The notes below the pieces were generated by a model, which saw only the letters and a list, made by a program, of their open reading frames with translations, was not told where the DNA came from and did not search any database. The position numbers and the translations under genes were made by a program. A DNA stretch of 64,000 bases from Sphyrna mokarran. Its lineage: Eukaryota. Position 1 is the first letter of the stretch. Each line of letters begins with the position of its first letter. The stretch is taken from NCBI GenBank assembly GCA_024679065.1, contig JAGIQG010000004.1, positions 54,250,001 to 54,314,000 of the forward strand, written 5' to 3'. Shown piece by piece: positions 5,945 to 60,206 of the stretch.

Positions 5945-7100
5945 TTAGAACATATAACATAGAAAAACTAGAGTGCAAATAGACCCTTCAGCCCACAAGT
6001 CACATCGATCATATCTTTACCTACTAGGCTTATCTATAACCCTCAATCCTATTCAGTCCCATGCACTCATCCAGAAGTCTCTAAAAAAGACTCTATCATA
6101 TTTGCCTCCACCACCACCAACGGCAGCAGATTCCACTCACTCACCACCCTCTGAATGAAAAGCTTGTCCCTGACATCTCCTCTGTACCTACTCTTCAGTA
6201 CCTTAAACCCATGTTCTCTTGTGGCAGTCATTTCAGCCTTGGGAAAAAGCCTCTGAGAATCCACCCAATCAATATATTTCAACATCTTATACACCTCTAT
6301 CAGGTCACTGCTCATCCTTTGTCTCTCCAAGGACAAAAGACCGAGTTCTCTCAATCTATCCCCATAAGTCATGCCACCCAATTCAGGTAACATCCTTGTA
6401 AATCTCTCTGTACCTTTTCAATGGCTTCCACATCCTTTTTGTAATGAGGCGACCAGAAGTGAGCACAGTACTCCAAGTGGGGTCTGACCAAGGTCTTATA
6501 AAGCTGCAGCATTATCTCCCGATTCCTAAACTCAATTCCTCGATTGATGAAGGCCAGTACACCAAACGCCTTCTTAATCATATCCTCTACCTGCGAAGCC
6601 AATTTGAGAGTCTTATGAACTTGCACCCCAAGATCCTTCTGATCTTCCACACTGCTAAGAGTCTTACCCCTAATATTATATTTCTTCATCCCATTTGACC
6701 TGCCAAAATGTACCAGCATACATAAATCCAGGTTGAAGTCCATCTGCCACTTCTCTGCCAGTCTTGCATCCTTTCTATGTCACGCTGCAAATTCTGATAT
6801 CCCTCCAAACTATTCACAACACCTCCAACTTTCATGTCATCGGCAAACTTACCAATCCATCCCTCCACTTCCTCATCCAGGTCATTTATAAACATCACAA
6901 ACAGCAAAGGTCCCAGAACAGATCCCTGGGGCACTCCACAGGTGACCGACCTCCATGCAGAAAAAGACCCATCTACAACCATTCCCTGCCTTCTGTGGGC
7001 AAACAAGTTTTGAATCCACAATGAACGTCCCCTTGGATCCCATGCCCCCTCACTTTCTCAGTAAGCCTTGCATGGGGGATCTTATCGATCACCTTGCTGA
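5945..7100 (-). mobile_element. CR1 LINE 3' fragment
   Basis: RT ORFs at 6067-7021 contain GVPQGSVLGP, FADD and RPHLEYC. Confidence 0.92.
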
Positions 7101-19271: not shown

Positions 19272-20832
19272 TCATAAATATCTTACACCTGCAAACAGTA
19301 TTTAGATTCTCAACTTCTTTCTTTGTCACATTCACTTCAGCATACAATGGGCGTTTGTTTTGTTTAAGTTTTGATGGGTCCTTGGAATCAGCAAGCTGCA
19401 AAGTGGCATATATCAGCTTCTTATCTCCACCTCTTTGTTTAGCCCGTTAAAGTAATATTTAATATCATTGTAAATCCATCGTCCAATCATTATTGAGACA
19501 ATTGACATTTTAACGAAAGACTTATGGAATTTCCTTCCATTAGTTCCAATTTCAGATTGTAATCGGATTTTGGTTTGGCTTCCTTTCCCTTTTCTGCAGC
19601 CCTCCCCCAAATCTTGTTGAAATTCCATTTGAACTTTCATGTAAAATTAATTCTTCTGTTAATATAGCTCATTGAAGAAAACAGATTAATTATTTGACTA
19701 AAATAAAAAAAAGTAATTCCATGCTGCTCTTTAAGGCAGTTGGGAAAGCTGATAGGACACAAGATTAATTTAAGGCCCAATTGTCTGAACATCGATAGTC
19801 GCAGTGCCCTGCTTATCTCACGGAGGAAGGCTCTGGGTCACATTTTTCATTCGCCTTACCGCCATTCCCACTAATCTCGTGATCTCTGGGACTTGAGGCA
19901 AAAATGACGAACTTGTTTGAAATCAGCCGACAGAGCACAGTTGGTAGATTAAACAAGAACCTTCCTATTTCCTGCATCTCAGTGTGGTATTACATAATAT
20001 TGATGCCATTACAGTAAATGACCTAAGATGTACCTGGGAATATACGATGCTCTCCTCCCTTTGTCTGGGGTTTGCCTTTTTCCTGGTGTCAATTTTGACT
20101 GTGGCAGAGCCAGGCTGTTGTCTTGTTTTGTCTGTAAAATAGATATTTTACGCATGTCATTGAAGAATTTCTTGTTTCGTAGTTGGGACAAGCATTATTC
20201 CAGGCAGACCCGAAAAAGAAACGTGGATAATATTGACTCTGATTTTTGTGTAAAACCGATTACGAGCCCGCAGCCTGATTAACATCTCTCCCGATTGCTA
20301 TTTCCAACCAAGTCAGTAAGAGAAATGTCAATTAATAAGGATTTGTTGAAATCTGTCCCATAAAGACAAAACCAATCCCCTCAGATTCTGAACAATTAAT
20401 CAATATGTTGTAATGTATAGTCATATCGTAGAATCCATACAGTGCCATTCGACCTATAGAGTCTGCAACCATCACAATCCCACCCAGGTTCTATCCCCTT
20501 AAATCCACCTAATCCCCGCTAATCCGCTGAAATTAAGAGGTAATTCACTTCACTGCATATCTCTGGAATGTAGGAGGAAAGCTGAGTACCCGGTGGAAAC
20601 CTAAACCAACGTGGGGAGAATATGAATGTACAAACTCCACATAAATAGTTACCCGACTGAACCCGGGTACCTGGCGCTGACCACCTAGTTGACTATCTTT
20701 CACCTCAATCCGTCAGTCCTGCCTGAGAATAGATGGTGTGCTCTTTCTTGTGTTTTGGTTTGGAGGGGCCTTTTTCTTCTCGCAGGCTTGAGTAGCGTAG
20801 GCGTCAATGTTCTCATCTGGCCTTTGTCTAAC
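19272..20832 (-). pseudogene. Three tandem homologous cytoplasmic exons with ITIM/ITSM-like Tyr motifs, all disrupted
   Basis: Exon 20832-20723 (110 nt; AYAT, TIYSQ; GC donor). Exon 20131-20034 (98 nt; LA-ATV, IVYSQ). Exon 19443-19272 (LIYATL, PLYAEV, TV-AGV; acceptor GG instead of AG). Confidence 0.72.
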
Positions 20833-21360
20833 CTGTAAAAATAAGACCCAAATTGAAAGTGGCGACTCTGCCTCTATAGCCAGCTACTGTCAATTCTAAT
20901 TAATTCTGTCAATGTAAATATGCAGACAGTAAACGATAAAACTAATTTGCAAGTGCACTCTCTTCCTTCTCGACTATAGTATTCAATATCGAACAATAGG
21001 GTGGAGAGTATTTGTTTAATCAGTTCAAGGGACGTTGGCTTCGCTGGCTACGCTAACGTATATTGACAGTCGATAATTGCACTTAAACCGCCCCAGTCGG
21101 TGTTGGGTACGTGCGTTTCCGGTATTTTTAGGGAAGTCCTCCCACGATTCTGACTCAGCAACAGTGAAGGAACTGCGATATTTTTCCAAGCCAGGATTTT
21201 CAATGGTTTAGAGGGGAACTTCAACGTAGTGTTCCTATATATCTGGCAGCTTTGAGATAGGGCGAGTTGGTGCTGCTGGAGAGAGAGATCAGTCGGAAAG
21301 AAAAGCAGAACTTCTTCAGATAGGCATTCCTGGAAGATAAATGGCAGTGAAGTAAACATT

Positions 21361-21565
21361 AAGATAAAAACAAAATATTGCAATGCTGGAATCTGAAACG
21401 AAATCAGAAAACACAGGAAAATCTCAGTAGGCCTGACAGCATCTGAGGAGAGAGAATAGAATATTAGCTCTATTCTGTTTCCACTGATGCTGTCAGACCT
21501 GCCGAGATTTCCAGCATTTTCTGTTTTTGTCTCAGATTCCAGCATCTACAGTATTTTACTTTTAG
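21361..21565. repeat. ~200-bp hairpin (foldback) element; relatives at ~3200-3300, 36500-36590, 38245-38450, 39955-40090
   Basis: aaaatattgcaatgctggaatctga...gacagcatc pairs with gatgctgtc...tcagattccagcatctacagtatttt. Confidence 0.8.
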
Positions 21566-21929
21566 CTTTTGGGCCGTATGTTCGCTGCCCTTGTCCTTTT
21601 AGATGACAGTGGTCGTGAGTTTGGAAGGTGCTGTCCATGAAGCCTTAATGCGTTTCTGCAATGTATCTTGCAGATGGTATACACTGCTGCCACTGTATGT
21701 CGGTGGTAGAGGAAATTTTCTTTCTGGTTGGGTTGCCAATCAGACGCCCGCTTTGTCCTGGATGGTGTCGAGCTTCTTGAGTGTTGTGGAACTGCTGTCA
21801 TCCAGGCAAGTGGAAAGAATTCCATCACATTCCTCACTTGTGCCTGCTTTGGGGAGTCAGGAGGTGAGATACTCGCTGCTAGATTCTTAGCCTCTGACCT
21901 GCCCTTGTAGCTACAATCTTTATGTAAGA

Positions 21930-22400
21930 ACATAATAAACATAAGAGTACAACTAGGAACAGGAATAGGCAAGTTAACACCTCTGCCATTCAGTACGATC
22001 ACAGCTGATTTCATGTCAGCTTCATCTGCACCTTCCTAACCATTCCCCATAACTATTCATCAGAGGGAGCAAACCATGGGACACACTACTAGTTACATCT
22101 TGCTGAATAGAAAAAGACCCATTGTTCCCACTTTCTGTTTTCTGTTGGCTAGTGAATCCTCTATCCAAACTAACATATTACCCCTAACCCCATTTTACCG
22201 TCGGTATTAATCCTTTGTGTGGCACCTTATCAAATGCATTCTGAAAGTCCAGATATTCTGTACCTATAGAATCTGCTGTAACAATCTCATCTTTGAAGAG
22301 TTAGTTAAACATGATTTACTCTTCTTAAAAACATGCTGACTCTGATGGTTTGCGTTTTGATTTTCCAAATGTCCCTTTATTACTTCCTTAATGAATAACA
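21930..22400 (-). mobile_element. CR1 fragment
   Basis: SQHVFKKSKSCLTN motif plus a CR1 3' end. Confidence 0.7.
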
Positions 22401-23412
22401 TGCTCTTTTGGTGACCCAACCCAGGTCCCTGCTGCTGTGAGGCAGCCATACTAAGCACTGTCATCATACCTTATGAAAGAGAGCCTGATGTCAGCAGAGG
22501 GGAAAAATTCGAGTCCGATTGTTCAGGTTAAAGTAACAATACTTGGAAAAACGTGGCAGAATTAGACAGTGTGCATTTAAGAGGGAAAGGATGCTTGACA
22601 AATCAACTGGGATTCTTCGATCATGTAACTAGTAGAGTTGATGATAGGGAGCCAATGGATGTGGTTTATTTCCATTTTCAGAATGCTTATGATAGTTAAA
22701 TACATGGGATTGCAGTTAAGTGCGTTGAGATGGATAGGAAATTCATTGGCAGACGTAGAAATAGATCTCTTTCTAAATGACAGGCAGAGACTCGTGTGGT
22801 ACCACAGGGATCAATGCAAGGACCTAAGTAGTCACAATTATATATTAATGAACTTAGATGGAGCCAAGTACAATATATCCACATTTACAGATGAGATGAA
22901 GCTGGATGGGAGGATGAGCTGAGGGATGTAGAATACTTCATCATTATTACTTGGATAAGCTGAATGAGGTGGGCAAATATACAGCAGATGCAGTATAATG
23001 TGAATAAATATGAGGTTATCCCCTTTGGTAGCAAAAACGGGAAGGCAGGTTATTATCTGGCTGTAAGTTGAGAAGAAGGAATGTGCAATGAGATCGGGGT
23101 GTCCTCCTAACACCTGTCACTGAAAGAAAGGAAATGGTATGCTGGCCTTAGTGAGAGGATTTGAGTAGAGGAGCTGGAATTAGTTGGCAGTTATAACCTT
23201 AGTATGCTCCAATGATCCCATTCTTATTGCTGACTCTGAAGAGAAACTGAAAGATTTTGGATTGAGTTCAGTGAAAGTGAGAAGGACTGAGCATAAATTG
23301 TAAAAATGTTTAGCAGTGTCCAAAAAGAAAATCAGTGCAACCAAGAAATAAGACAAAGAATGCAGTGGTTAAAGATGCATTTCAAAACTCCAAATTCTGT
23401 GAAAACTGTACC

Positions 23413-23897
23413 CAGGCATTGGAGAGGGTACAGAGGAGGTTTACCAGGATGTTGCCTGGTATGGAGGGCAGGTCTTATGAAGAGAGGCTGAGGGATTTGA
23501 GGTTGTTTTCGTTAGAAAGGAGGCGGCTAAGAGGGGACCTTATCGAAACATATAAGATGATTAGAGGTTTAGATAGGGTGGACAGTGATAGCCTTTTTCC
23601 TAGGATGGAGAAAGCTAGCACGAGGGGACACAGCTTTAAATTAAGGGGTGATAGTTATAGGACGGATATCAGAGGTAGGTTCTTTACCCAAAGGGTGGTT
23701 CGGAAGTGGAATGCCCTGCCTGCAGCAGTTGTAGATGCGCCAAGTTTGGTGGCGTTTAAGAGGTTAGTTGCTAAGTATATGGAAGAGAAGGGAACGGTTT
23801 AGTTTGGAGGGTCATTGCTTTTTATATTGGTCGGTGCAACATTGAAGGCCGAAGGGCCTGTTCTGTGCTGTAATGTTCTATGTTCTATGTTCTATGT
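23413..23897 (+). mobile_element. Young CR1 3' fragment closely related to the 56.5-57.0 kb element
   Basis: ALERVQRRFTRMLPGM...RGDLIETYK with a (TTCTATG)n tail. Flanked by older CR1 pieces at ~22550-23170 and ~23940-24410. Confidence 0.92.
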
Positions 23898-25799
23898 AAC
23901 AAAGCTGAGAATTCTGGAATACTATATCATAATTGTCATAAGGAGTGCTACAATTATACAAGGCCTTGGTGAGGTCACACCTGGAATATGGTGTGCAGTT
24001 TTGATCTCCTAGTGTGAGGAAGGACATTCTTGCTGTACAGGAAATGCAGCAAACGTTTACCAGGCTGATTCCTGGGATAGTGGGACTGATGTCTGAGGAG
24101 CAGTTGAGGTGGGTAGGATTATATTTGCTAGAGATCAGAAGAATGAGGGGGCAATCTCGTAAATGTATAAAATTCTTGCAGGACCTGATGTTGGGGGGAG
24201 TCTAGAATCAGGGATCATAGTCCACAGATATGGGGTAAATCTTTTTTAAGACTGAAATGAGAAGTAATTTCTTCACGCAGAGAGGGGGGCTTGTGGCATT
24301 TAATTTCAGAAAGCATTTGAGGCCAAAACATTTTGTTCTCAAGAAGTTAGATTAATTCTTGGGCAAAGGGAGATCAAAGAGTCTGGGGAAAGGGTGGGAT
24401 TGAGTTGGATGATATGGCACAATGGTCAGCACTGCTGCTTCAGTGCTAGGTACAGGTTTCGATTCTGGTGAGTTCTATCTGTGGAGTTTGCACAATCTCT
24501 CCACATCTGTGGGTTTCCTCCAGATGCTGCAATAAGCGAAGGTGGATTAGCAATTGTAAAGGCTCAGTTATGAAAATCGGCCTGAAAAAGATGCTCTTTT
24601 CAAATGTCCTCCTGCACTGTAAGTGTTCTATGATCTGCCCATGATACTGAATGGTGTGTTCTGAGCTTGCTGTTTTCCTGCCAAGTTTAGGCTACTCTGT
24701 TCACTAGCTAAACAATGAGGATAGCTATTTTAATAGATGCCAGTTCTGTATTTGTGAGATAGCTTTGTTTCTGCTGGTGTCTAATGATCTGTGTTTGATT
24801 ACAGCCCTGTTTGCAGTGCCAAAGAATTACAATCTGGTTGCTGCACTCTTATTTGAGCTTTACGCAATGCTCCAGATTATAGACCCATGATCTCCAGTCT
24901 TCCTCAGCTTTTGAGCAGGTAATAAAGGAATATAATTCTTGCACACTACTTTATTCAGATTTATAGATTGTTTAAAACTTAGAGGGAAAGCTCAAGAGGG
25001 GAATCAGCACTAATTTGTTCTATTATTTTTGCATTGGCTTTTTATGGTAGTTGCCTTAACTGCAGACAATAAATGTACCAATTTTGAATCTGATCTACAC
25101 TGATGCATTTGGATCCTTGCATCTTAAAAGTAAGACGGAGAGAGCAGGTCCAACTGGGAATCTATGTAGAATATTGTGACAACACGTAGTATGTTTTTTT
25201 TTGTTAACCTGATTGCCTTATTTACTATCTAATGTGTATTTGAGCAAATTAAACTCTTCTTTCTTTTCCCTACTTACATTAGGGAAATGAGTAGGCCATT
25301 TAACCCTGTAAACCTATTCCATGATTCAGAGATGTGATGGCAGACCTACGACCGAACTCCAAATACAAGGCATTCTCTCTCATGCCCCATGCTATTTCTT
25401 TAAATTTCTATAAAAGGCCTTGTTCTTGAAATAGTGTGAAACTGAAGAGACATTCTGATTTAGAAACCCTTTTTTAAATCATCCAGAATCTTCCTGTAGA
25501 AACCCTGCCTTAGCAAATTCAGCCCATTGTGTCTTGTATGTATGGTTAATTGGATCTTCAGTGAAAATTTTTGCTTTGTAAATTGCTGCAGCTGCCAGTA
25601 GTTAATAGAACGAGGGGATTTTTGAAACTCTCAAACAACAAGGTGAAGTGCATCTTATGAGAGATAAAGATTGAGAAATAGGGTGGTTTGTGTCCAATCT
25701 GAACAGGATACAAAGATTAGATTGGTGAGGAAAAATCCATTAAAGGGGTACTTGTGTGATCAAAAATTATTAAGTTTAATTTTGCGGTCAGTTAATGAA

Positions 25800-27080
25800 C
25801 TGTTAATATAAAAATCTCATGGGACTTTGACTTTTCACAAAACAAGTGATATAGTTTGCCCAGCAACCTGTGGCAATTCACAATTTTGGGAATAACCCTT
25901 CAATATCAAGTTGGTAGCCAGTTTTCACATAAGCAGTGTGTATCAATTGTTTGCTTTTCTCCCCCCTGAATGTTGTCCCTATCAAAAGTTGGGATGTTTA
26001 CATGAGTTGAGGGAAAAGACTCCTTTTAATAAAGGGCATCTGTCCCCACCATCCTGTCTGTTACTGTGACTCATTTTCTGCGAAGAACTTGTTGACACTT
26101 TAAAACCATCCCTATTAGCATAGTATAACAGATTCGGAGGGATTCCAAATTGGGTTACATCTGCTGCTCTAGTGCATACAATTGGGCAGCCTGAAAACTA
26201 ATGCAGCTTTCTTGAAATTATTTAATTAATGCCTTATAATTAATTGCTCATATTTAAGAGAAAATCAATTTCTTTACAATAAATGTTTACATTTTTCAAT
26301 GTATCTCTTTTGAATTCTAGGTTTAATTTTACTTATAACTGAAGTTTATGAATATCTCAGACAACATCATGGTGACCATCTAAGTCCAGTTTCCCTGAAC
26401 ATTGACCATGGCTTCTATCAGCCACGGACTTGATCAGTTCTTCAAATCCAACCAATGGCATTTTGTAGCACCTACCCTGATTGGCTGGTACTTCTGTTCA
26501 ACTCTACAATGAATGAAGACAAAGAATTAACTGGCTCATTTTTTTAAAAAGAAGAAATGTTTCTTTCTGCTTGAGTAATTGTTGCATTTTCTACTTTATT
26601 AGATGGATAAAAATAACTTTTCTGAGGGTTTTAATTGTATAGAGAGATTTCACCCTGATCATTTTGACTTTGTAATTGGATGTAGCACTCAATCTAGTAG
26701 GATTGGCAATTCACTGAATGGATTTTGTGGCTTTGAGTTCTATGATAGAAAATGTTTCACAGCTCCTCTTGCTGACCAACTCAAATCTCAAACATATTTA
26801 GTCTTGTTTATGATTATATCCGAGAGTCATGGGTTGAGATTTTAACTTTCACCTGTTTTATACAAATGAATGTTTTCTGCTCATTCCATGTGATTAAGGT
26901 GTGTAAATAACATGACTGCTGCTGGTTTGTGGATCTGTCCAATTTGCCCCAATATCTGCTGTGTATGATTTAGATTGTGTGAAGTATTTTGATCTTCAGA
27001 AAATTGCAATGCCCAGAATCAGTGGGAATTACAGTAAATGCCAGATTGCAAGCAGTCATAAGGCTGTTTGCATTTCTTAA
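25800..27080. repeat. Diverged segmental duplicate, copy 2
   Basis: Matches 13140-14185 in order and orientation. The left boundary is uncertain. Confidence 0.75.
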
Positions 27081-30000
27081 GTTTTTTTAAAAAAACACAC
27101 ACTGAGTCTTAAAACTATAAGCAATTTGAACTACACTAAAATATTGAGGTTAGCCCAAAAAAATTTTAATTCTGAATGGTAACAAACCAAATGCAGGTTT
27201 AGGAGCCTTGTGTTCCCAGTTGGTGGGAAAATTGTTTATTTATGACTAATTTTGCATGGGAAAGATGTTGCCTTCCTTCTTAGCAAGAAATCTGGAAGTT
27301 CGAGTATGAGACTTTTAGAATCATTGTTGACTGTCGTAGCTCCAGGCTCACTGTAATCTTGGTGATAAGTGAGTCCTTGGCTGTATTATCCACACTTGCA
27401 TATAGAATCTTGCCTGTCTTGAATCTGTATGTCTATAGTGTTGCCCATCACCCTGGTAGAATGGAATGTTAGAACATCACCTTTGGCAGATGTAGGATGC
27501 AATGAAAAGTGCTTCTGGTAGGATTGCCGTAATCCTATATAATTAAACTGCACTGAAAACATTGCAATTTATACAATGTTTTGCCTTAAAATTGGTTGGT
27601 GCCTCGAGAGAATTGTAAGGATAGTAAAGTAAGAATAGAGCTATCTCTAGTGGGAGTGATTTTAAAAAAAATACTTTAGTATACAGCACCTGACTTTATA
27701 TAGTCCTGCTGATTATCACTTGTTTTGCTGTAGCTTTGACAACCTAAAAGAACTAAACAGTTGGTTATACCTTTTGTGGTTTCCGTCCATCTCTGTCTTC
27801 TCGGCCCCTGTTTCTTATCACCTTTCCACCTGTTCCCCAGTGCCAAATAAAGATTTAAAACTGATCTCCATTTTCAGGAAAGTAACCCTGTGAAATTTCT
27901 TAATCTGTGTCTCCAATCCCTCTATTCTTAGTTATGGAATCTGACCATGGTTCCTGTATCATCTAACCCATAGAAATTAGTTGATTTACAATGTTTATGC
28001 ACAAGGTTCACTAATGTGCTTAGCCAGTTGGCATATCTTATATCACTGCATTGAAAATTGCAGTGGTTAGTACTGCTGTCTGTGCCAGAGACCTACATGT
28101 GATTCCTTGCGTGGGTCACTGTGTGGAGTTTGCACATCGTCGCAATGTGGGTTTCTTCCAGATGATCCAGTTTCCTTCTACATTCTGAAGATGTGCTGGT
28201 AAGGTTGAACATGCTAAATTGCCCCATAGTGTCAGGGGGTTAGAAGGGCTATGAGATAGGTCCTGGGTGGGATTGCAATTGGCCACCTCCTGCACTGTAG
28301 GAATTCTATGACAGCGCAGGTGGTGTCTGTTAGCTAAAATGTTTCCTTGACCCTGTTGGATCTTTTGGGTTGACTAACTGAACTGTACTTCCCTGGGAGC
28401 AGCACAAAAATGAAGCAATTTTTCAGTAATTGCTGTCCATAAAGTATTCTGATTAGCCTAGTTATGTTTTCTCCTTTTTTAAAAGGTAGGATTATATTGT
28501 TGCAGGCAACAGGCTGATCTGTCCCTCTTTTGAAACTAGATAGCATATTCTTGGGTTCTATTAAATAGTTTGAATTTTGCAGAATGGTGGTGCATTGAAG
28601 TTCCCATTATCCTTTGCCACATTATTGGTGATTACAACACGTTTGCTGTTGCTTCAAACAGAACAAATTTTAAAAAGAAAACTGTTAAACAAAAATATTT
28701 GTTTTATTGCAGTTGAATTGATTGGCACCTAACGCTTCATAAGGAATCTCCAAATCTGATCTCAAACCATGGAAACTCAATTTTAAGAACTATCATAAAC
28801 TGACAGTATAAATCTATATGACTTGGTTGATATTGTTTCAAACTTGAGCAAATTTATGACATGCTACTCAAAGAAATAAGATATTTGAAAGCCTTCTTGG
28901 TATGGAAAAAAACACTGATATTAGACTTGTTTCATTGGATAAGTGACCAATTCTCTTGTTTTACTACCTTGGCTTTGTAGATTCTCACCATTATTCTGTA
29001 CTTTAATTGCAATAAATGAAACTGTATGGTTAATGAACAAGTATCAGGAAGCCTTGTGACACAGTGGGCACCTGCTTCTAAGGCAGAAGCTCTGGGTTCA
29101 AGTCTGATCCAGGAGTTGCTTGTCAAGAAAGGTTGGTCAAGGAATGATGCTAAATAAGTTGAGTAACTTGTGAATGCTTAATGTACACCAATGGTAGACA
29201 GTAAAAACAGGAGAAATTTCCATCACATGGTCATCCACGTGATGGAAATTAATTGAAGCCTCTACTATCACTACCCACTTGGGATTGAACATAATGGCAT
29301 ATTATTAGAACAACAGACTCCTTGGAGGGCTAAATAGCTGGTGTCTGTCAGACTGGTACCAATAGCTGGATTAATCCCCAGATTGGAATGGATTCCTTGC
29401 TGTGAAGTCAGAGTGCTGTAGATTAGATCTGCCTTTAGGCAGAGTTGAGGAATGAAATACCTGGGTCTACTTCTATAAAAAGCTCAATTTTGTGTTGTTT
29501 TAAGATTTTCAACTTCTCTCTCTATGTCATGTTTATTTCTGCATACTCTACATGTTTGTCTTGCTGTTTAAATTTTGATGCTTTCTTGAAGTGAGCGAGC
29601 TGCAGAGTGGCGTAAGTCAGCTTGTTATCTCTGCGTTGTTTAGTCTGTGAAAGCAATATGTAATATTTGTTAACTCATCAGCTCATTACTTGAGGCAATC
29701 AGGTTTTTAAAAGTTTTCTCTCATTTCAAGTCACAGTTAATAAGAACACAGCCCATCAAGTTTAGAGCAATTTAGTTCCCTTTTCTCTTATGCTAAAGAA
29801 AAGTGACCATCCAATTTCTTTTTGAAATTATTGGTCTCTGTTTCCCTTTATCCCTGGCAGCCCACAAACTCATCTCCAACCTGTTCTTAATCTCCACCCC
29901 TCTCCCAAGTCCCTTGCCCAAAAACCTCATTCTCATACCACCAGTTAATGGAAACACCACAATGAATCTTTTCTCCAAGGAGAGAAATGCTAGCTTTTCC

Positions 30001-33104: not shown

Positions 33105-33220
33105 TGATGTGGAGTTGCCGGCATTGGACTAGGGTAGACACAGTAAGTAGTCTCACAACACCTCATTAAAGTCCAACAGGTTTACTTGGTAGCAGGAGCT
33201 CGGAGCACAGTGCCTTTAGC
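33105..33220 (-). mobile_element. Penelope-like terminal repeat fragment
   Basis: Reverse complement of 46870-46980, with the hammerhead core partly deleted. Confidence 0.65.
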
Positions 33221-45140: not shown

Positions 45141-45950
45141 CAATGTTATTATTCATTATAGCTGAAAATGAAGCAAGCTGTACGCAAAGCTAGTTCTGGA
45201 ATGTTCTCAGAACAACAGCGATATTTCTCTAAAATTAACTATATTTAACATTCAAGCTGATTTCAAGATTTTTGGTTCGTTTTTCAGTTTTCAGAATCAG
45301 GACGCTGGGGATTGCAAAACATATTTACAAATATTTTGTTGAGAGATGCGAAGTTTCAAATTAACGTCATAAATTATTCTTCATCTCAACTTTGAATGAG
45401 TAACACAGGCATTGTGCATTGTACGACATTTCAGATCGTAAGATGGGAGCAGCGTCTAACCACAAATGTTTCCGTTATACCATGAGCAGAATCGCTGTGC
45501 AGTTCTTGCAATTTCCCATTAGCTCTAGTTATCAGTGCACGTTGTGGTATATAATTAGTTGACTGAAAATATCAGCTATAAGAAATGGCATTTTATATAG
45601 ATAAGTTGCAAAGGTTCTCACTCGAGCAACAGCAACCGCGCATTACAATCTGAAATCTAAAATTAACGTCTTTGTAGTCATCAACAGAATTGAACATATT
45701 ATAAATAGGAAGAACTTACAAAGGATAAGAAATGGGAATAAGAGTTAAAGTCACACATCAAGACCACCCACACAGTCACACACGTAGAACAAGTGGTATT
45801 TATAATGTACCTTCAACGTAGTAAATTATCACAAGAACATTATCAAACACGTTTTAATACTGAGCAATGTTGGTGACTAGCAGGATTTAAAGGAAGTAAG
45901 AAGTCTTACAATACCAGGTTAAATTCGAATAAGTTTATTTATAGTAAATC

Positions 45951-45986
45951 CACAAACTTTCAGAAACGCAGTTCCTTCGTCAGGTG
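45951..45986 (-). ncRNA. Minimal type I hammerhead ribozyme motif (intact catalytic core)
   Basis: Minus strand reads CAC CUGACGA AGGAAC-UGC-GUUUCU GAAA GUUU GUG: CUGANGA core, 6-bp stem II, GAAA, and a CAC/GUG stem I. Confidence 0.65.
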
Positions 45987-46851
45987 TGTGGAAAGTTCTG
46001 ATCAGCGAAGGACATATAAAGGCACAGACAGTTTACAGAATACTGATTAGAATTGAATTTTTACAGCTAATCTGCTATTCAAGTCTTAAAGATGCAGGCA
46101 ATGTGAGTGGAGATAGCATTAGACATAGATTAAAGAGATCGGTATTGTCTCCAGACTGGACAGTAAGTGACAGGTCGTTCGAAATGAATCCAAGATCCTC
46201 ATGTGTGCGGAACTCGGCCATGCATTTCTGCTCAGTGACTCTTCACTGTTGTGTGTCATGAAGGCCTCGTTGAAAGATGCTTACCTAAAGATCGGAGGCC
46301 AAATGCCTATGACCGCCGAAGTGTCGCCAACTGGAAGGGAACCATCTTACCTGGTGATTGTCGAGGATGTTCGTTCATCCGATGTAGGTCGTCAGACAAT
46401 GTTGTCAACGATGAATGAACATCGCTTGACAATGACCAGGCAAGACTGTTTACTTCTTGTTGGTGAACACTTCAGCAGTCATGGGCATTCGGTCTCTGAT
46501 CTTCGGGTAAGCGGTCTCCAAGGTGGCCTTCATGACACACAATAATGCAGAGTCACTGAGCAGAGACTGATGGCCGAGTTCCATACATATAAGGACGGCC
46601 TCAACTCGGATCCTGAGTTCATGTCGCATTATCTATAACCCCCATGACTTACCTGGGCTTGTGAATCTCACTTACTGTCCTGTCTGGAGACAATACATAT
46701 CTTTTTAACCTATGCCTAATGTTATCTCCACTCACATCGTCAGCATCTTTAATCTTGAATAGTAGATTAGCTGTAAAGACTTGCATTCTAGTAAATATTC
46801 TGTAATCTGTGTGTGCCTTCATGTATCCTTCTCTGATCAGAACTCTCCATA

Positions 46852-46887
46852 CAGTTGATGAAGGAACAGCATTTCTGAAAGCTTGTG
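46852..46887 (+). ncRNA. Degenerate hammerhead ribozyme motif (C3>U) in the right arm of the Penelope-like element
   Basis: UUGAUGA AGGAAC-AGC-AUUUCU GAAA GCUU GUG. Confidence 0.5.
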
Positions 46888-47060
46888 TATTTACTATCAA
46901 ATAAACTGGTTGGATTTTAACCTGGTGATGTGAGACTTCTTACTGTGTTTACCCCAGTCCAATGCCCACATCTCCACATCAAGACTTTAAAGGAAGACAG
47001 AGAGAAGCTTTGGGTATGGGATTCCAGACCTTAGCCCCTTTGCAGCTGGCATGACTGCCA

Positions 47061-49191: not shown

Positions 49192-50170
49192 TGCTTCAAA
49201 TGTAAAATTCTCATATTTAGTTAGATTTAGTCTTGACCGTGATTATGCCCACCTCAGGAACTTGCCCAGCTAATCACACCCCCCTCCCGTCCATTATTCA
49301 TTCCTTATCTGCGGAACGTAATGCATTAGCTAAACTTTTACCTTCATTGCCCAGACCTTATTCTCTTTCTAAACCTGTTTCCTGCACTTCTTCTGTTCCG
49401 TTCACATTTCCAGGGTATAGAATACTTACAGTGCAAAAGACTATCTGGTCCATCAAGTCTGCACTGACTCTTCAACAGACCAATTTACCTAGGCCTGATC
49501 TCCATCATCCCATGTTTTTACTCCGCTATTCTCACTTACCCAACCATCCTGGGACTCTGAAGGGCTGTTTAACATGGCCAATCCATCTAACCTGTTGGAA
49601 CCACGTTTTCAATCAAAATTAGTCACAGAGGTTGATAGCATGGGAACAGGTCCTTTGGGCCAACTTGTCCATGCCATACAGTTTTTACCATTAAGCTAGC
49701 CCCAATTGCCCACATTTGGCCCATATCTCTCTTACCTTTGTTACCCATGTATCTGTCTAAATGAATTTTAAAAGACAAAATTGTATCTGCCTCTACTATT
49801 ACTTTTAATAACTCATTCCAGATGCTCACCACGCTCTCAGTGAAAAGATTTCCCCTTTGAATCCTTTTGTATCTTTCCCCTCTCACCTTAAATCTATGTC
49901 CTCTACCTTTAGACCCCCATACATTTTGGAAAATATGTTGAATATCTATGTCCCTCATTATGCTTCAAATGTAAAATTCTCATATTTAGTTAGATTTAGT
50001 CTTGACCGTGATTATGCCCATCTCAGGAACTCGCCCAGCCAATCACGCCCCCCTCCTGCCCATTATTCATTCCCTATCTGCGGAATGTAATGCATTAGCT
50101 AAACTTTTACCTTCATTGCCCAGACCTTATTCTCTTTCTAAACCTGTTTCCTGCATTTCTTCTGTTCCGT
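49192..50170 (+). repeat. ~210-bp near-identical direct repeat (49192-49401 and 49961-50170)
   Basis: tgcttcaaatgtaaaattctc...cttctgttccgt occurs twice with about ten substitutions. Confidence 0.95.
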
Positions 50171-50387: not shown

Positions 50388-53044
50388 ACAAAGAACAAAG
50401 AACTACACACCACTGGAAACAGGCCCTTCGGCCCAATGAACCCATGTCGCCATTTAACATTGTGAGTGCCCTCCTCTATCTATGACCTTTGTCTATGCCT
50501 ATTGGGGAAGATTGAGGGAAGACGAATTTAGGGACAATTTGTTACACCAATCAGCTTAACAGCATGTTTCTGGGGCGTGGGAGAAAACCCACGCAATCAC
50601 GGGGAGAATGTGCTAACTGTCACAGACACTGGCCCAAATCCATGTATCTGCACAGCAAACGGTGATAGTCACTGAGCTGTCATGTTGCCCGTCAGATGGT
50701 CCAGTTTAAGTGTACACCAATGACGTGAAGCAGTAGGCAACTCTTGAAGCAGCATCAAAGAGCAGCCCTCGCACGATCCACCTTGTGTATGCCCCTTGTT
50801 GGATAACAAATCGGGCTGAATCACCTGTGAAGTAAAAGAAAAGACATTAATAAACATGCACGACTTAGACAGATGTTTACGGAATCCCCAGAAGCTCAGA
50901 AGTAAGACAAGTGAGCCATGAAATATGTTGGAAGGTTCATAGAAATCAGTTGATTCCCAGGGATGTCCCAATGCTCTTGATCTTTATTTAGAACAGTCTC
51001 CTGTATCCCTCCATCTCTGCTCCGCTCATGTGCCTATCTAAATAAATCTTAAACAACTCTAGCATTCTTGCCTCCACCACCTTGCTTGGCAGTGCATTCC
51101 AGGTCCCCATTGTGTAAAAAACCTCCCTCTAACATCCGAATTATACCTTGCCCCACTGATCCTAAGTCGGCAGCCCCTCGTAATTTTTGTATCCAACCTA
51201 GGAAAAGGTTTACCAGTGTTCACTCTATCTATACCCTTCATAATCTTATACATCTCTATTAGATCTTCCCTTATTCTCCACCTTTCTAAGGAGAACAGCC
51301 CCAATTTACCAAATTTCTCCTCATAGCTCAGTCCTTCCATACCAGGCAGCATCTTGGTAAACCTCCTTTGCACTCTCTCCAGGTTCTCCACGCCCTTCTT
51401 GTAGTAAGACTACCAGAACTGGATGCAGTACTCCAAATGTGGATGAACCAACGTTCTGTACAACTTCAACATTAGACGCCAGCTTTCATACTCTATACCC
51501 CTCCCTATAAAGGCAATCATACCATAGGCCTTCTTTGCCACCTTCTCCACCTGTACTGCCACCTTCAAGGACTTGTATACTTGCACCTCCAGGTCCTTCT
51601 CCATTTCTATACTCTTAATAGGCCTACCATTTATTGTGTAACACCCCCATCCTACATTATTTCTTCCAAAATGCATCACCTCGCATTTATCTGGATTAAA
51701 TTCCATCTGCATTTCTCTGCTCAATATACCAGCCTATCTATATATCCTGCTGTATTGCCTGATACTGCTCCTCACTATTAGCAAGTCCAGCCATCTTCGT
51801 ATCATCTGCAAACTTGCTGATCACACCACTTACTCCCTCTTCCAAGTCATTTATGTATATTACAAATAGCAAAGGTCCCAGTACTGAGCCGTGGGGCACA
51901 CCACTAATTACAGACCTCCAGCTAGAAAAGGACCCTTCCACTTCTACTCTCTGTCTCCTGTTACCAAGCCAGTTCTCAATCCATCTGGACACCTGTCCTT
52001 GTATCCCATGAGCGTTAACTTTTTCAACTAACCTCCCATGAGGGACTTTGTCAAATGCCTTACTGAAATCCATGTAGGCGACATCCACGGCTCGTCTTTC
52101 GTCGATCGTTTTTGTCACCTCCTGAAAAATTTCTACCAGACTCATAAGGCAGGACCTCCCCTTTACAAAACCATGCTGCCTATCACTAATCAAATTGCCA
52201 CACTCTAAATGCGTATACATCCTATGAATCCTTTCAACATCTTCCCTACTACTGACAGCAAACTCACTGGCCTATAATTACCCAGGTTATTCCTACTACC
52301 CTTTTTAAACAACGGTACCACGTTCGCTATCCTCCAGTCCTCTGGGACCTCACCTGTGTCCAACAAAGAGACAAATATTTGCGTCAGAGGCCCAGCAATT
52401 TCATCTCTCGTCTCCCTAAGCAGCCTAGGATAAATGCCATCAGGCCCCGGAGATTTATCAATTTTAATACCACCTAAAAACCCAAACACTTCCTCCCTCG
52501 TAATAGATATTTCGTCCAACGAGTCTACAACTCTGTCCAAGACAGTACCAGACAACAAGTCCCTCTCCTTCTTGAATACTAACACAAAGTATTCATTCAG
52601 GATCTCCACCATTCCCTTGGAGTCTAAGCACAGTTCCCCTCCTCTGTCCCTAAGAGAACTGATTTTTCCTCTAACCACCCTTTTGTTCCTAACATAGGAG
52701 TAAAATACCATTGGATTTTCCTTAATCCTGTCTGCCAAGACCATTTCATGCTCCTTTTCGCCATTCTAACTCCTTGTTTGAGCTCCCCCCTACTCTCCCT
52801 GTATTCCCCCAATGCTCTCTCCATTCCCAGTTGCTTAGACCTAACATACGCCTCTCTTTTCTTCCTGACCCTCCTCAATCTCTCTAGTTATCCGCAGCTC
52901 TCTGATCCTACCTTTCCCATCCTTCCTCTTAACTGGTACATGTCTTTCCTGCAACCTTTTCAGCTGTACCTTAAAAGACTCCCACATGCCGAACGTGGAC
53001 TTACCCTCAAACAACCTCTCCCAATCTGTATCTATATCAGTATG
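50388..53044 (-). mobile_element. CR1 LINE ORF2 fragment with 3' region and V-SINE-like tail, inserted in an older CR1
   Basis: Frameshifted RT ORFs from 52878 to 51059 (KSPGPDG, QHGF, DFSKAFD, FADD, HLEYCIQFW). (GTTCTTT)-type tail at 50388. Confidence 0.88.
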
Positions 53045-53918
53045 CTGTATTTAATGTTCTAACCAATGAAACCAAGCACACCGAATGCCTACATCAGCAG
53101 CCTGTCCACCTGTGACTCCACTTTCTAGAAGCTATATACCTGTTCTCCTATATCTCTTTGTTCCATAACTCTCCCCAATGCCCTACCACAACTGAGGTAG
53201 TTATGCCCTGATTTGATCTACCAAAATGTATCACATTTATCTAAATTACGTTCCATCCTGCCGTACATCAGCCACTAGTGTAACTGATCAAGTTCCTGTT
53301 GCAATCCCAGATAATCTTCTCACTGTGCCACTATGCCACCAATCCTAGTGTCATCTGCAAACTTACTATCCATGCCTCTTAAATTTTTATCCAAATCATT
53401 AATATAAATGATAAATTATAGCGGATACAGCACTGATCCCTGGGCATACCACTGATCCCATGCCTTCAGTTTGAAAAACAACTCTCTACAGCCACCGCCT
53501 GTCTTTTGTCATCCAGCTAATTTTGTATCCAGCTGGCTATCTTACCCTGGATCCCATGAGATTTAACGTTATGCAACAACCTACCATGCGGTACCTTGTC
53601 AAAGTCCATATAGGCAAAATCAACTGCACCGTCCTCATCTACATTCTTGGTTATCCCTTCACAACGCTCAATCAAATTCATGAGACATGATTTTCCACTC
53701 ACAAAGCCACATTTGCTGTCCCTCATCAGTCCTTGCCTCTCTCAATGCCTGTAGGTCCTATCCCTCAGAATACCTTTTCACAACTTACTTATTACACTTG
53801 TTTAGCTCACCTGTCTGTGGCTCCCAGGTTTTTCCCTGCAGCTGTTCTCAAAGAAAGGTGCAATATTTGCCACCTCCAATCTTCAAGCACCTCACCCATG
53901 GCGATCGACAATCCAAAT

Positions 53919-56900
53919 TTCTGCACCTGAACCGGAGGGGTACCAATATCTTGGGGGGTAAATTTACCAGTGCTATTCGGGGGGGATTAAACTGATTCGG
54001 GGGGGATGGGAACCTGAATTGTTGTGCCAGTATACAGGAGGATGTGAATAGGGAGGTCACGGATAAGGTTTCTAGGTTGCAGCAGTATAGTGGCAAACGG
54101 GAGGGGGGTTTGAAGTGTGTATACTTTAATGCGAGGAGCATACGCAATAAGGTGGATGAACTTGCAGCCTGGATTGGTGCTGGGGACTTCGATGTTGTGG
54201 CCATTTCAGAGACGTGGATAGAGCAGGGGCAGGAATGGTTGTTGCAGGTTCCGGGGTTCAGATGTTTCAGTCAGAACAGAGGTGGTGGTAGAAGAGGGGG
54301 AGGAGTGGCATTGTTAGTTAAGGACAGCATTACGGTCGCAGAAAAGACGTTTGATGTGGACTTGTCTGCTGAGGTAGTGTGGGCTGAGATTAGAAACAAG
54401 AAAGGAGAGGTCACACTGTTGGGAGTTTTTTATAGGCCTCCAAAAAGTTCCAGAGAAGTAGAGGAAGGGATTGCAAAATTGATCCTGGATAGGTGTGAAA
54501 GTGTAAGTGTGAGTGTAAGTGTAAGTGAAACTGCAAATGTGAAAGTAACAGGGTAGTTGTAATGGGGGACTTTAAATTTTCTAACATCGATTGGAAAAGC
54601 TATAGTTCAAGTACGTTAGAGGGGTCAGTTTTTGTTCAATGTGTGCAGGAGGGTTTCATGACTCAGTTTGTAGATAGGCCAACAAGAGGTGAGGCTATAT
54701 TGGATTTGGTACTGGGTAATGAACCAGACAGGTGTTAGACTTGGAGATGGGTGTGCACTTTGGTGATAGCGACCACAATTTGGTTACGTTTACCTTAGTG
54801 ATGGAAAGGGACGGGCATGTACCGAATAACAGTAGTTATAGCTGGGGGAAAGGTAGTTATGAGGCTATTAGGAGAGATTTAGGATGCATACGGTGGAGCA
54901 GGAAATTGCAGGGGCTGGGGACATCTGAAATGTGGAGCATATTTAAGGAACAGCTTCTGCATGTCCTTAATGAATATGTACCTGGCAGGCAGGGAGGAAG
55001 TGGTCGAGTGAGGGAAGCATGGTGTATTAGGGAAGTTGAATCTCTGGTGAAGAGGAAGAAGGGGGCTTATATAATGATGAGACGTGAAGGGTCAGTTAGG
55101 GCAATAGAGAGCTATAAATCAGCCAGGAAGGAGCTAAAGAGGGAGTTGAGAAGAGCTAGAAGAAGACACGAGAAGACTTTGGCGGATAGGATTAAGGAGA
55201 ATCGTAAAGCTTTTTACAGGTATATAAATAATAAAAGATTGGTTAGGGCAAGATTAGGGCCAGTCAGAGATAGCAGTGGGAAGTTGTGAGTGGAGCCTGA
55301 GGAGATAGGAGAGACACTGAATGAGTATTTTTCGTCAGTATTCACGCAGGAGAAAGACAGTGTTGTCAGGGAGAATACTGCGATACCAGGTTGTAGACTG
55401 GGTAGGATTGAGGTTCATAAGGAGGAGGTGTTAGCGAATCTTGAGGGTATGAAAATTGATAAGTCCCCTGGGCCAGATGGGATTGACCCTAGGATTCTCT
55501 GGGAGGCTAGAGAGGAGATTGCAGAGCCTTTGGCTTTGATCTTCATGTCGTCGTTAGCTACAGGTATAGTGCCGGAAGACTGGAGGATGGCAAATGTTGT
55601 CCCTTTGTTCAAAAAGGGGGGTAGGGACCATCCTGGAAATTATAGACCGGTGAGCCTGACTTCTGTTGTGGGCAAGGTCTTGGAAAGAATTATAAGGGAT
55701 AGGATTTATAAGCATCTAGAGAGAAATAAATTGATTAGGGATAGTCAGCACGGTTTTGTGAAGGGTAGGTCGTGCCTCACAAACCTTATTGAGTTTTTGA
55801 GGAGGTGACCAAAGAGGTAGATAAGGGTAAGGCAGTTGATGTAGTGTATATGGATTTTAGCAAAGCGTTTGATAAGGCTCCCCATGGTAGGCTACTGCAG
55901 AAAGTGCAGATGCATGGGATTGAAGGTGATTTAGCAGTTTGGATTAGGAATTGGCTAGCTGATAGACGACAGAGGGTGGTGGTTGATGGGAAATATTCAA
56001 CCTGGAGTGCAGTTACAAGTGGTGTACCTCAAGGATCTGTTTTGGGGCCACTGCTGTTTTTCATTTTTATAAATGACCTAGATGAGGGTGTAGAGGGTTG
56101 GATTAGTAAATTTGCTGACGATACCAAAGTGGGGGGAGTTGTAGACAGCGAGGATGGATGTTACAGTATGCAGAGGGACATAGATAGGTTGCAGAGCTGG
56201 GCCGTGAGGTGGCAAATGGAATTCAATACGGATAAGTGTGAGGTGATTCACTTTGGTACGAATAACAGGCATATGAAATATAGGGTTAATGGAAGGACCC
56301 TTAATAGCGTTGTTGAGCAGAGGGATCTTGGGGTACAAGTACACAGCTCTTTGAAAGTTGGCACCCAGGTTGATAAAGTTGTTAAGAAGGCGTACGGTGT
56401 GTTAGCTTTTATTGGTAGAGGGATTGAATTTAGGAGCCGTGAGGTTATGTTACAACTATACAAAACTCTGGTGCGGCCGCACTTGGAGTATTGCGTACAG
56501 TTCTGGTCGCCGCATTATAAGAAAGATGGGGAAGCATTGGAAAGGGTGCAGAGGAGGTTTACCAGGATGTTGCCTGGTATGGTGGGAAGGCCTTATGAGG
56601 AAAGGCTGAGGGACCTGAGGTTATTTTCATTAGAGAGAAGAAGGGTACTCGGTGACCTAATTGAGGCGTATAAGATGATCAAGGGATTGGATAGGGTGGA
56701 TAGTGAGAGCCTTTTTCCTCAGATGGTGATGACCAACACGAGGAGACATAACTTTAAATTAAGAAGTGGTAGTTATAGGACGGATGTCAGAGGCAGGTTG
56801 TTTACACAGAGGGTGGTGAGAGCGTGGAATGCACTGCCTGCAGCAGTTGTGGACTCGCCTACTTTGGGGGCATTCAAATGTTCAGTGGATAGGCATATGG

Positions 56901-57000
56901 ATGATATTGGAATAGTTTAGGTTAGAGGGTCCACTGGCTGGCGCAACATCGAGGGCCGAAGGGCCTGTACTGCGCTGTAATGTTCTATGTTCTATGTTCT
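53919..57000 (+). mobile_element. Young 5'-truncated CR1 LINE: ORF1 esterase C-terminus plus near-complete ORF2 (APE + RT), inactivated
   Basis: ORF1 SGNH-type end LHLNRRGTNILGG. APE motifs NARSIRNK, ISETW, YRPP, GDFK, SDH. RT motifs YRPVSLTS, DFSKAFD, GVPQGSVLGP, FADD. (TTCTATG)n tail ends at 57000. Lesions near 54500, 54730, 55288 and 55800. Confidence 0.95.
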
Positions 57001-58012
57001 AAATATCTCTGCTAGTGACTGCAACTGTCACTCTAGCCTCCTCCCAGAATATATTTCATTGGGTCACGGGGATTTATCTAACCTGATATGCTTTAATACT
57101 TCTTCTTTCTCTGAAATAAGTATATTCCTCAGGCCATCATTACTTATTTCTCCAACTTTAAATACCAATGAGAAATATTAATTTAGGATCTCACCCACCG
57201 CTTGTGGATCTGCACACAGATGACCTTTTTGATCGTTAAAAGGTCTACTCTCTTCTTAGTTAGTCTTTTGCTCTTTGTGCATTCATTTGTAGAAGCTTTT
57301 TGGATTCTACTTTGCTTTATCGGCTAAGCAACTTTATGCCCCCTTTTTTGCCCTCCTGATTTCTCTCTTAATTCTACCCCTACACCCTCTATATCCTTCT
57401 AGGGTTCCAATTGGTCTCAGCTATCTATGCATGTCATATGCCCCCTTGTTCTTGTTAACCAGGGCCTCCATATCCCAAGTCACCCACGGTTCCTTTCTTC
57501 TACCAGCCTTGCCCTTCACTCTAAGAGAACGTGTTTACCCTGAACTCTGGTTAGCACTGTTTTGAAAGCCTTCCACTTACCAACTAATGCTTTGCCTGCC
57601 AACAGACTCCCCCAATCAACTTTCTATCTAATCCTATCTAATGTCATGGAAATTGATCTTGCTCCAATTTCTATTTTAAATTTTGGGAAATTTTACTATT
57701 CTCCTTAGTTATCTTAAAACTAAAATAATTAGTACCAAAGTGATCCCTCATTAAGTGTCACCAGTCAGCCCTTATTTCCCAAGAGGAGGTCGCACTTTGC
57801 TCCCTCTCTAGCTTTCCTTCCTGCTAATATGCCTTTGGCTGGGTGCATTATTCTTTTTGGTTAGATCTTTTGGAAAATCTTTAGTACACATTTCTAATTC
57901 AAACGCATACTTATAGATATAAGAGGTGAGTTTCCTCTTCTTTTCCAGGTCTGTTGGTGTTGTGATAATGTCACTATACTCTCTGTTGTGATTTTGGCTA
58001 ATACTATGGGGT

Positions 58013-59190: not shown

Positions 59191-59500
59191 TCGGATTAAA
59201 AAAAATACGAATCCCTCCCAGTAATCGGGACCGTTGGTATTTTACTCGTTAATAATTGAAGAAAAATATCTAGCAGCTCTTTCTAGCGAAATCTTACGTA
59301 CCTCAACAAAACACTTCTTTTCCTAAGAACAGGGAACATCCTGCAAGTGTCTTCGCAACACTGCTAACCCAGATTAACAGAGGAGGTCGCTGTTTCCTGA
59401 AAATTGTTGCTGGGCTGGAGGAATAATTGTCGGAATTATGCACCGGATGTTGCTCCGGAATGTCTCATTATTCTCAATGTGTAATTTGTAGTCCAAATGC

Positions 59501-60206
59501 TCACCTTCAAATAACATTCATTTTAATGTGAATTTGCAATCTTATTATAAAGGTTTGAATTGAAAGGCGATGTGCGCACTGGTGATAAACATTGTCTTGC
59601 CTTTGGCACTGTGACAGCTTGAAATACTGCCCAAGGATGACTATCAGCACCATTATTACTAATAGACTCACTCAATACCGAGCACTATTAGAGGATAATG
59701 ACATTGTGAGCGCCGCAAACGAAGAACAGCGGAGACATAAGACCGTTAATATCATTACATCCAGCGAGAATACCAGGAATACACTGGATCAGAACTTATT
59801 AGTGTAATGACCATTCAATATAAATACAGAGTTATTAAAAAATCAAGTTACTGCCTGTTGAAACAGTTCACATTCGGACTAATGCTTCAAAATGTACTAA
59901 AAGAATACAACAAATTCAAATGCTAATATGGTTCTCAAAATAATTACTGGATTATGTAACAGAACAAATGAACAAGAGTTTCCGAAAAAGAAGTGAACAT
60001 TTGTAATTTACAAATTTGGATCTGAACAGAAAGAGGAGCCCACTTCTCCGCGTTAATGCCGCATCTTCATACATTCCGACCGTCCTTCACTATTTATTTG
60101 TGTTGACCCCAGGTTCAATTTTCATGCTGTTTTTCCAGGAAAGTCGATGAGGAGGATGGACAGAATTTACACTCCATCCAGTCAATCCTCGGATGAATGG
60201 GGCGAA
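59501..60206 (-). pseudogene. Gene D: decayed paralog of gene A (C1 remnant, TM, last exon)
   Basis: Colinear with 1200-2140 at an offset of about 58.2 kb. TM reads LLVIMVLIVILGQYFKLSQCQ with a GC donor, the last exon begins G TGA at 59504, and a C1 remnant with deletions and stops starts at 60206. No V exon seen in the window. Confidence 0.78.

Follow-up and report, generated by a model that had tools for sequence, protein, structure and literature searches.

A headless receptor tail in a hammerhead VJ-C1 gene cluster is probably a dead copy of a neighbouring gene's final three exons

A block of three tyrosine-bearing tail exons on the minus strand of the window (19272-20832; the window being the whole 64,000-nt stretch of Sphyrna mokarran DNA that was analysed) reproduces, in broken form, the three final exons of a VJ-C1-TM receptor gene in the same cluster, and is, with a probability that we put at roughly 0.85, a dead, non-functional remnant. 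Judged from its sequence, it is most likely real but ordinary duplication debris in a fast-turning receptor cluster, not a working or a purposely disabled off-switch. Its value is that of a marker, which leads to the intact parent and dates the order of duplications, and it shows the turnover of a cartilaginous-fish VJ-C1 receptor cluster that has both inhibitory-type and Arg-TM members.

An intact parent gene and other broken copies

A preliminary description, made from the letters of the block alone, had seen an orphan, broken tail of repeated exons with Tyr motifs, and had expected an intact parent. Both points held: exons for an ectodomain or a TM are missing from the block, and its parent was found in the same genome as the tail of a complete receptor. 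A DNA search of the block's own genome (40 of 1988 candidates scored) gave four full-length paralogs with 83-88% identity, located 53, 114, 174 and 236 kb away, and one truncated paralog 52 kb away on the other side; the remaining scored matches were short and mostly to a repeat in intron 1. When parent T3 was used in a protein search, 9 matches were obtained among 14 candidates, all at 54.18-54.51 Mb of the same contig. Sequence was examined over 400 kb surrounding the window and, in a second cluster, over 200 kb.

The farthest paralog (L004, 236 kb) forms the tail of a complete gene, named gene B in what follows (G000:C993:54516524-54505772, minus strand), which has eight exons in the order leader, single-exon V, C1, TM, a 44-nt phase 1-to-0 linker, T1 (111 nt), T2 (105 nt) and T3. 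All of its splice sites are AG/GT and its open frame runs to 384 residues. Pfam recognised a V-set domain in the V exons of gene B and of gene A, the receptor gene of the window described below, and a C1-set domain in the C exon of gene A. The TM of gene B is uncharged and its tail has six Tyr; two of the six motifs (LAYATV and LTYAAL) fit the ITIM consensus, and the tail is predicted to be inhibitory.

The other three full-length paralogs (L002, L003 and L005) are broken remnants that have no leader, V or C1. All four remnants, the window block included, carry frameshifts or stops, at different places, and the LTY tyrosine has been lost from L002 and L003 and, through a 34-nt deletion, from L005. 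A second B-type gene was also seen at G000:C993:54231034-54217660 (L041-L042, L006), in which leader, V, C1 and TM are present, the linker exon contains a stop and a deletion extends from mid-T1 through T3.

Structure of the block and its lesions

As originally noted, the three exons are phase 0 and mutually homologous. In the window DNA, the similarity of T1 to T2 and of T1 to T3 was equalled by none of 2000 shuffles and that of T2 to T3 by 3 of 2000, and with the parent protein the three comparisons gave 0, 0 and 13 of 5000; parent introns 1 and 2 resembled each other weakly, at a score reached by 3/300 shuffles. The introns separating T1 from T2 and T2 from T3 measure 591 and 590 nt, in agreement with the spacing of about 600 bp first reported, and the sequence likewise bears out the exon lengths of 110 and 98 nt, the GG acceptor of the third exon and its intact LIYATL and PLYAEV.

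T1 (20832-20723, minus) has 110 nt where the parent has 111, owing to a 1-nt loss at ~20790, two codons past the first Tyr, that is common to L003; its acceptor is AG, and its donor reads GC in place of the parental GT, a change common to L002 and L003. T2 (20131-20034, minus) has 98 nt compared with 105 in the parent, through losses of 6 nt and 1 nt that are private to the window copy. Its AG acceptor and GT donor are canonical and IVYSQ is intact, but the Tyr codon of LAYATV (~20108-20106) has been destroyed and is also substituted. Both exons had been thought to be 1 nt short, which is correct for T1, whereas T2 lacks 7 nt. Similarly, LAYATV had been proposed from a 1-nt repair of the second exon, and it is indeed the motif of the parent exon, but none of 396 single insertions gave YATV and the one-base repair was rejected.

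In T3 (19443-19310, minus), the acceptor is GG instead of AG, again private to the window copy, with a different acceptor change (AA) in L002. A 4-nt loss in an AAAG run before the ancestral stop, also found in L005, leaves the ancestral TGA (19312-19310) out of frame, and the frame continues to 18976. The preliminary description had instead placed the fourth lesion in a 2-nt loss further on, the repair of which would give a terminal ITSM, TVYAGV. The sequence concerned (19309-19272, minus) is derived from the 3' UTR and is non-coding in the parent, which stops before it. None of the four paralogs has two extra bases there; three stop right after KKE(R/K)S and the fourth has the 4-nt loss of the window copy, while KKERS closes four of five horn-shark homologs, the fifth being shorter. 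The ITSM was therefore rejected, as in the parent and the horn-shark homologs alike it falls beyond the stop, and the coding tail has no TxYxxV/I motif of the kind borne by PD-1/SLAM-type receptors. The maximum number of Tyr is accordingly six, not the seven once envisaged. "Quadruply broken" was right as to the breakage, although the GC donor of T1 had been missed. A cryptic acceptor at 19395 that would skip LIYATL does exist as an AG, but it has no better support than the seven other AGs; eight in all occur in the first 110 nt of T3, four of them in frame, and two of those four keep LIYATL.

Between the block and gene A (20860-29480), no credible match to leader, V, C1, TM or linker was found (best blastn E 0.007 over 28 nt; best tblastn E 0.37), and hidden TM or ectodomain exons in this interval were rejected on that ground. 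The block has two properties of a gene-fragment pseudogene from partial duplication, in that it is homologous to part of an intact paralog without its 5' exons and carries disabling lesions (losses of 1, 7 and 4 nt, a GC donor and a GG acceptor).

It is scarcely credible that these lesions are assembly or consensus errors in a tail that is really intact. The T2 losses and the GG acceptor, being private to the window copy, are what such errors might look like, but other copies, 6-17% diverged, also carry the 1-nt loss in T1, the GC donor or the 4-nt loss, and these three are therefore not read errors. Moreover, the absence of the TM and ectodomain exons extends over several kb and is common to another unit, and the reading frame holds in the nearby exons of gene A and of the parent.

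Origin of the headless copies

The array alternates complete type-A genes with B-type pieces. Type-A genes have the same plan as gene B, with V exons ~72% identical to those of B, and each of the four headless tails follows a complete or near-complete type-A gene. Two remnants keep a TM exon, broken by deletions, and start 48 nt before the TM exon of B. The window block and L003, the next unit, have lost the TM and begin further down, at a common junction (22392-22411 in the window) where homology to the parent ends after a second loss of ~6 kb that also took the linker exon. Placed on the parent sequence, two of the start points fall at 54511420 and two at 54508885.

On the strength of this arrangement, the block probably owes its headless state to duplication and not to deletion. 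A tandem duplication reaching from just before the TM exon of B, in the C1-TM intron, to ~9 kb past gene A would have produced the first headless copy, and unequal crossing-over would then have multiplied the unit. Tails that possessed neither promoter nor ectodomain would subsequently have gathered frameshifts and splice-site changes. The alternative, which we regard as doubtful, is that a second copy of the parent was once complete, was deprived of leader, V and C1 by deletion and then decayed. This would yield the same junction; deletions are common here, as in the near-complete parent-type gene at 54231k that lost T2-T3, and the excess of synonymous changes described below could be the trace of an earlier working phase. 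However, the sequence that precedes the remnants matches the 3' flank of the array's last gene, behind which no parent-type exon occurs within 29.7 kb, and the 5' flank of the parent was not seen before the remnants (in blocks of at least 250 nt).

Duplication followed by unequal exchange also bears on L003, which is a mosaic: its upstream junction and T1 lesion are like those of the window copy and its T2-T3 like those of L002 (96% vs 76%), the pattern expected from unequal crossover. A tree of the five blocks placed the window copy as sister to L002+L003, which does not match the pattern of the common junction unless recombination has occurred.

Gene A and possible splicing into the block

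Gene A was reconstructed on the minus strand upstream of the block. Its leader (39152-39098), single-exon VJ-type V domain (38910-38605; Pfam V-set E 6e-12), C1-set exon (35436-35140; Pfam C1-set E 2e-06) and uncharged TM exon (33746-33648, with a phase-1 donor at 33648) are intact. Comparison with the type-A genes revealed the junction of a ~4.2-kb loss at 33202-33206, with which the 44-nt phase 1-to-0 linker exon has gone; the linker is kept in the other four of the five type-A genes, and the window gene A is the only one without it. The first two tail exons of gene A are degenerate, and its own terminal exon (29644-29522, minus; LTYATL and VEYAEI), a paralog of T3, has been out of frame with the TM exon since the linker was lost, such that joining 33648 to 29644 gives a stop after one residue. 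Gene A is consequently predicted to be a tail-less receptor with an uncharged TM, and may possibly act as a decoy. The search of its intron for a replacement linker exon produced a single weak candidate at 33128, which begins in repeat DNA.

The preliminary description had drawn attention to splicing from 33648 into the block. Joining this donor to T1 gives an immediate stop, and that splice was rejected. The join to T2 is open and in frame, and read-through into the next intron would supply IVYSQV, with a stop 21 codons later. In principle, then, gene A could have co-opted T2, 13.5 kb downstream, as a spare tail with one canonical ITIM. The private 7-nt loss makes T2 a phase 1-to-0 exon, gene A alone of the five type-A genes is without a linker just as the window copy alone has the T2 loss, the splice sites of T2 are canonical and there is a mild synonymous excess. 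Nevertheless, we consider co-option very unlikely. Chance gives the fitting phase in one in three frameshifts, and the transcript must skip both the terminal exon of gene A, which has a good acceptor at 29644 and AATAAA/ATTAAA at 29007 and 28708, and the acceptor of T1; furthermore, divergence in the exons is not below that in the introns. Equally improbable is the stronger form of the idea, in which the two losses would cancel out and gene A would yield a tail-less decoy form together with a one-ITIM form rescued from a pseudogene fragment. Should the in-frame TM-to-T2 splice take place, a receptor would clearly have recovered a signalling motif from a pseudogene next to it.

Selection on the block and the cause of the lesions

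If the block were a dead remnant, its exons would not be expected to be better preserved than its introns, and they are no closer to the parent (305/339 identical positions in exons vs 1019/1156 in introns, p 0.38). Changes private to the window copy were found at 12/280 exon sites and 33/1069 intron sites (p 0.35), with gapped columns and columns lacking a 3-of-4 majority left out of the count. Pointing the other way, synonymous changes made up 6/12 of the private exon changes against an expected share of 0.28 (p 0.09), or 6/9 (p 0.02) after three changes beside the T2 indel were dropped as alignment artefacts. The corresponding figures were 7/13 for L003 (p 0.05), 2/7 for L002, 3/16 for L005 and 2/13 for the intact parent, and 18/48 (p 0.10) for the four remnants pooled; these are several tests on small counts. 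Between the window block and the parent, pN/pS was 0.49 (p 0.06), a path of which half is a working gene. Gene conversion from a working copy could be another cause of the mild synonymous excess.

It had been suggested that two of four lesions fell on Tyr codons, and hence that the lesions were favoured because they removed Tyr motifs, with selected loss of inhibitory signalling. That one Tyr codon of the window block is destroyed, that the LTY tyrosine is missing from L002, L003 and L005, and that type-A tails also erode through exon loss are compatible with such selection. Against this, five of the six Tyr codons of the window block are intact and a single one is altered, the second supposed Tyr lesion resting on the 3' UTR sequence read as an ITSM; the majority of lesions shift the frame or alter a splice site outside the Tyr codons. 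As the block has neither an ectodomain nor a TM exon, selection would find no signalling to remove, and we hold this explanation to be even less probable than co-option.

The receptor family and its cluster

Four V-C1 genes lie ~0.6 Mb away on the opposite strand (G000:C993:54877139-55035210, plus; L052-L068). Their V exons are 94-95% identical to the gene B type and 88-94% identical to type A, and all four have a different TM exon, which in the three that were translated contains an Arg and is followed at once by a stop. Such genes are predicted to be the activating partners of the inhibitory-type genes. Paired receptors, according to PMC3533184, share near-identical ectodomains, to which some members add a Tyr-motif tail and others a short tail with a TM Arg. 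Gene B, with its uncharged TM and ITIM-type tail, and the Arg-TM genes, with their near-identical ectodomains and short tails, fit this definition, and the VJ-C1-TM family of the cluster looks, from its gene structures, like a set of paired receptors. Homogenised ectodomains between opposing partner receptors are described in PMC3210942.

Among the type-A genes (the others being at G000:C993 54195k, 54348k, 54413k and 54475k), all five have a T2 that looks dead, as does T1 in two. Tail length in the family is tuned by whole phase-0 exons, giving six Tyr in the parent and, by prediction, four, two or none in type-A genes.

A third gene type was observed in the window on the minus strand, with a V exon at 3965-3570 that matches V-set weakly and another exon, at ~1430-1360, that is hydrophobic and resembles a TM; this type has a paralog at 54535k, and every unit contains fragments of it, among them window 59466-59664. 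Single-exon V genes that are more distant (35-46% identity) were seen in large number at G000:C993:54937k-54982k (minus), 54.60-54.85 Mb and 62.4-63.3 Mb, two of them with a C1 exon.

Relation to known receptor families

Named V homologs from horn shark and catshark were 63-71% identical to the parent V (7 of 199 candidates), and tail homologs, all from horn shark, accounted for 5 of 46 candidates. RefSeq represents the family under loose labels: its V-C1-TM models (horn shark P0002 and P0005-P0008; catshark P0001 and P0004) are automatically called SIRP-alpha-like, NCR3LG1-like or tapasin-related-like. The shark models resemble gene B in having an uncharged TM, a linker, three tail modules and a KKERS end, with some models skipping modules, and they are intact, in contrast to the headless and broken block of the window.

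The best non-titin PDB match was the human SIRP-alpha chain 2wng (E 1e-09), a match that is not specific, antibody (Ig) light chains giving 2e-09 and UrIg2 1e-08. The SIRP family is similar in combining a V-set plus C1-set ectodomain with a multi-Tyr tail, and in having partner genes with a charged TM. SIRP-alpha, -beta and -gamma have a V plus two C1 domains, and the TM of SIRP-beta carries a Lys. The shark family differs in having one V and a single C1, an Arg in the partner TM and six Tyr spread across three repeated exons.

NKp30 consists of a V domain only. It belongs with PRARP, the tetrapod VJ-C1 genes and UrIg/UrIg2 to the non-rearranging VJ and VJ-C1 genes, which share with the present family a single-exon V and a J-like end, then a C1. 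Non-rearranging VJ-C1 genes are named as a class in PMC10751288 and PMC12227049; in the latter UrIg2 has nine C1 domains, compared with one here. The paired receptors KIR, LILR, PILR and CEACAM are alike in their near-identical ectodomains with a Tyr tail or with a short tail and a TM Arg. The traits of their clusters that recur here are two clusters in opposite orientation and gene fragments in the array; unlike them, the shark family has a VJ-C1 ectodomain. No paper describing this VJ-C1-TM family was among the matches listed by a literature search.

Other features of the window

Nested inverted repeats of ~1 kb, 78-88% complementary, occupy 45888-46966 and are likely to be a non-autonomous mobile element. 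Remains of LINE-type reverse transcriptase were seen at 51059-57001 and 6067-7057, and the cluster contains several copies that are 94-98% identical to a LINE 3' piece at 23416-23894, which indicates a young insertion. Finally, a 210-nt direct repeat, 96% identical, is present at 49192-49401 and 49961-50170, the two copies being 769 nt apart.
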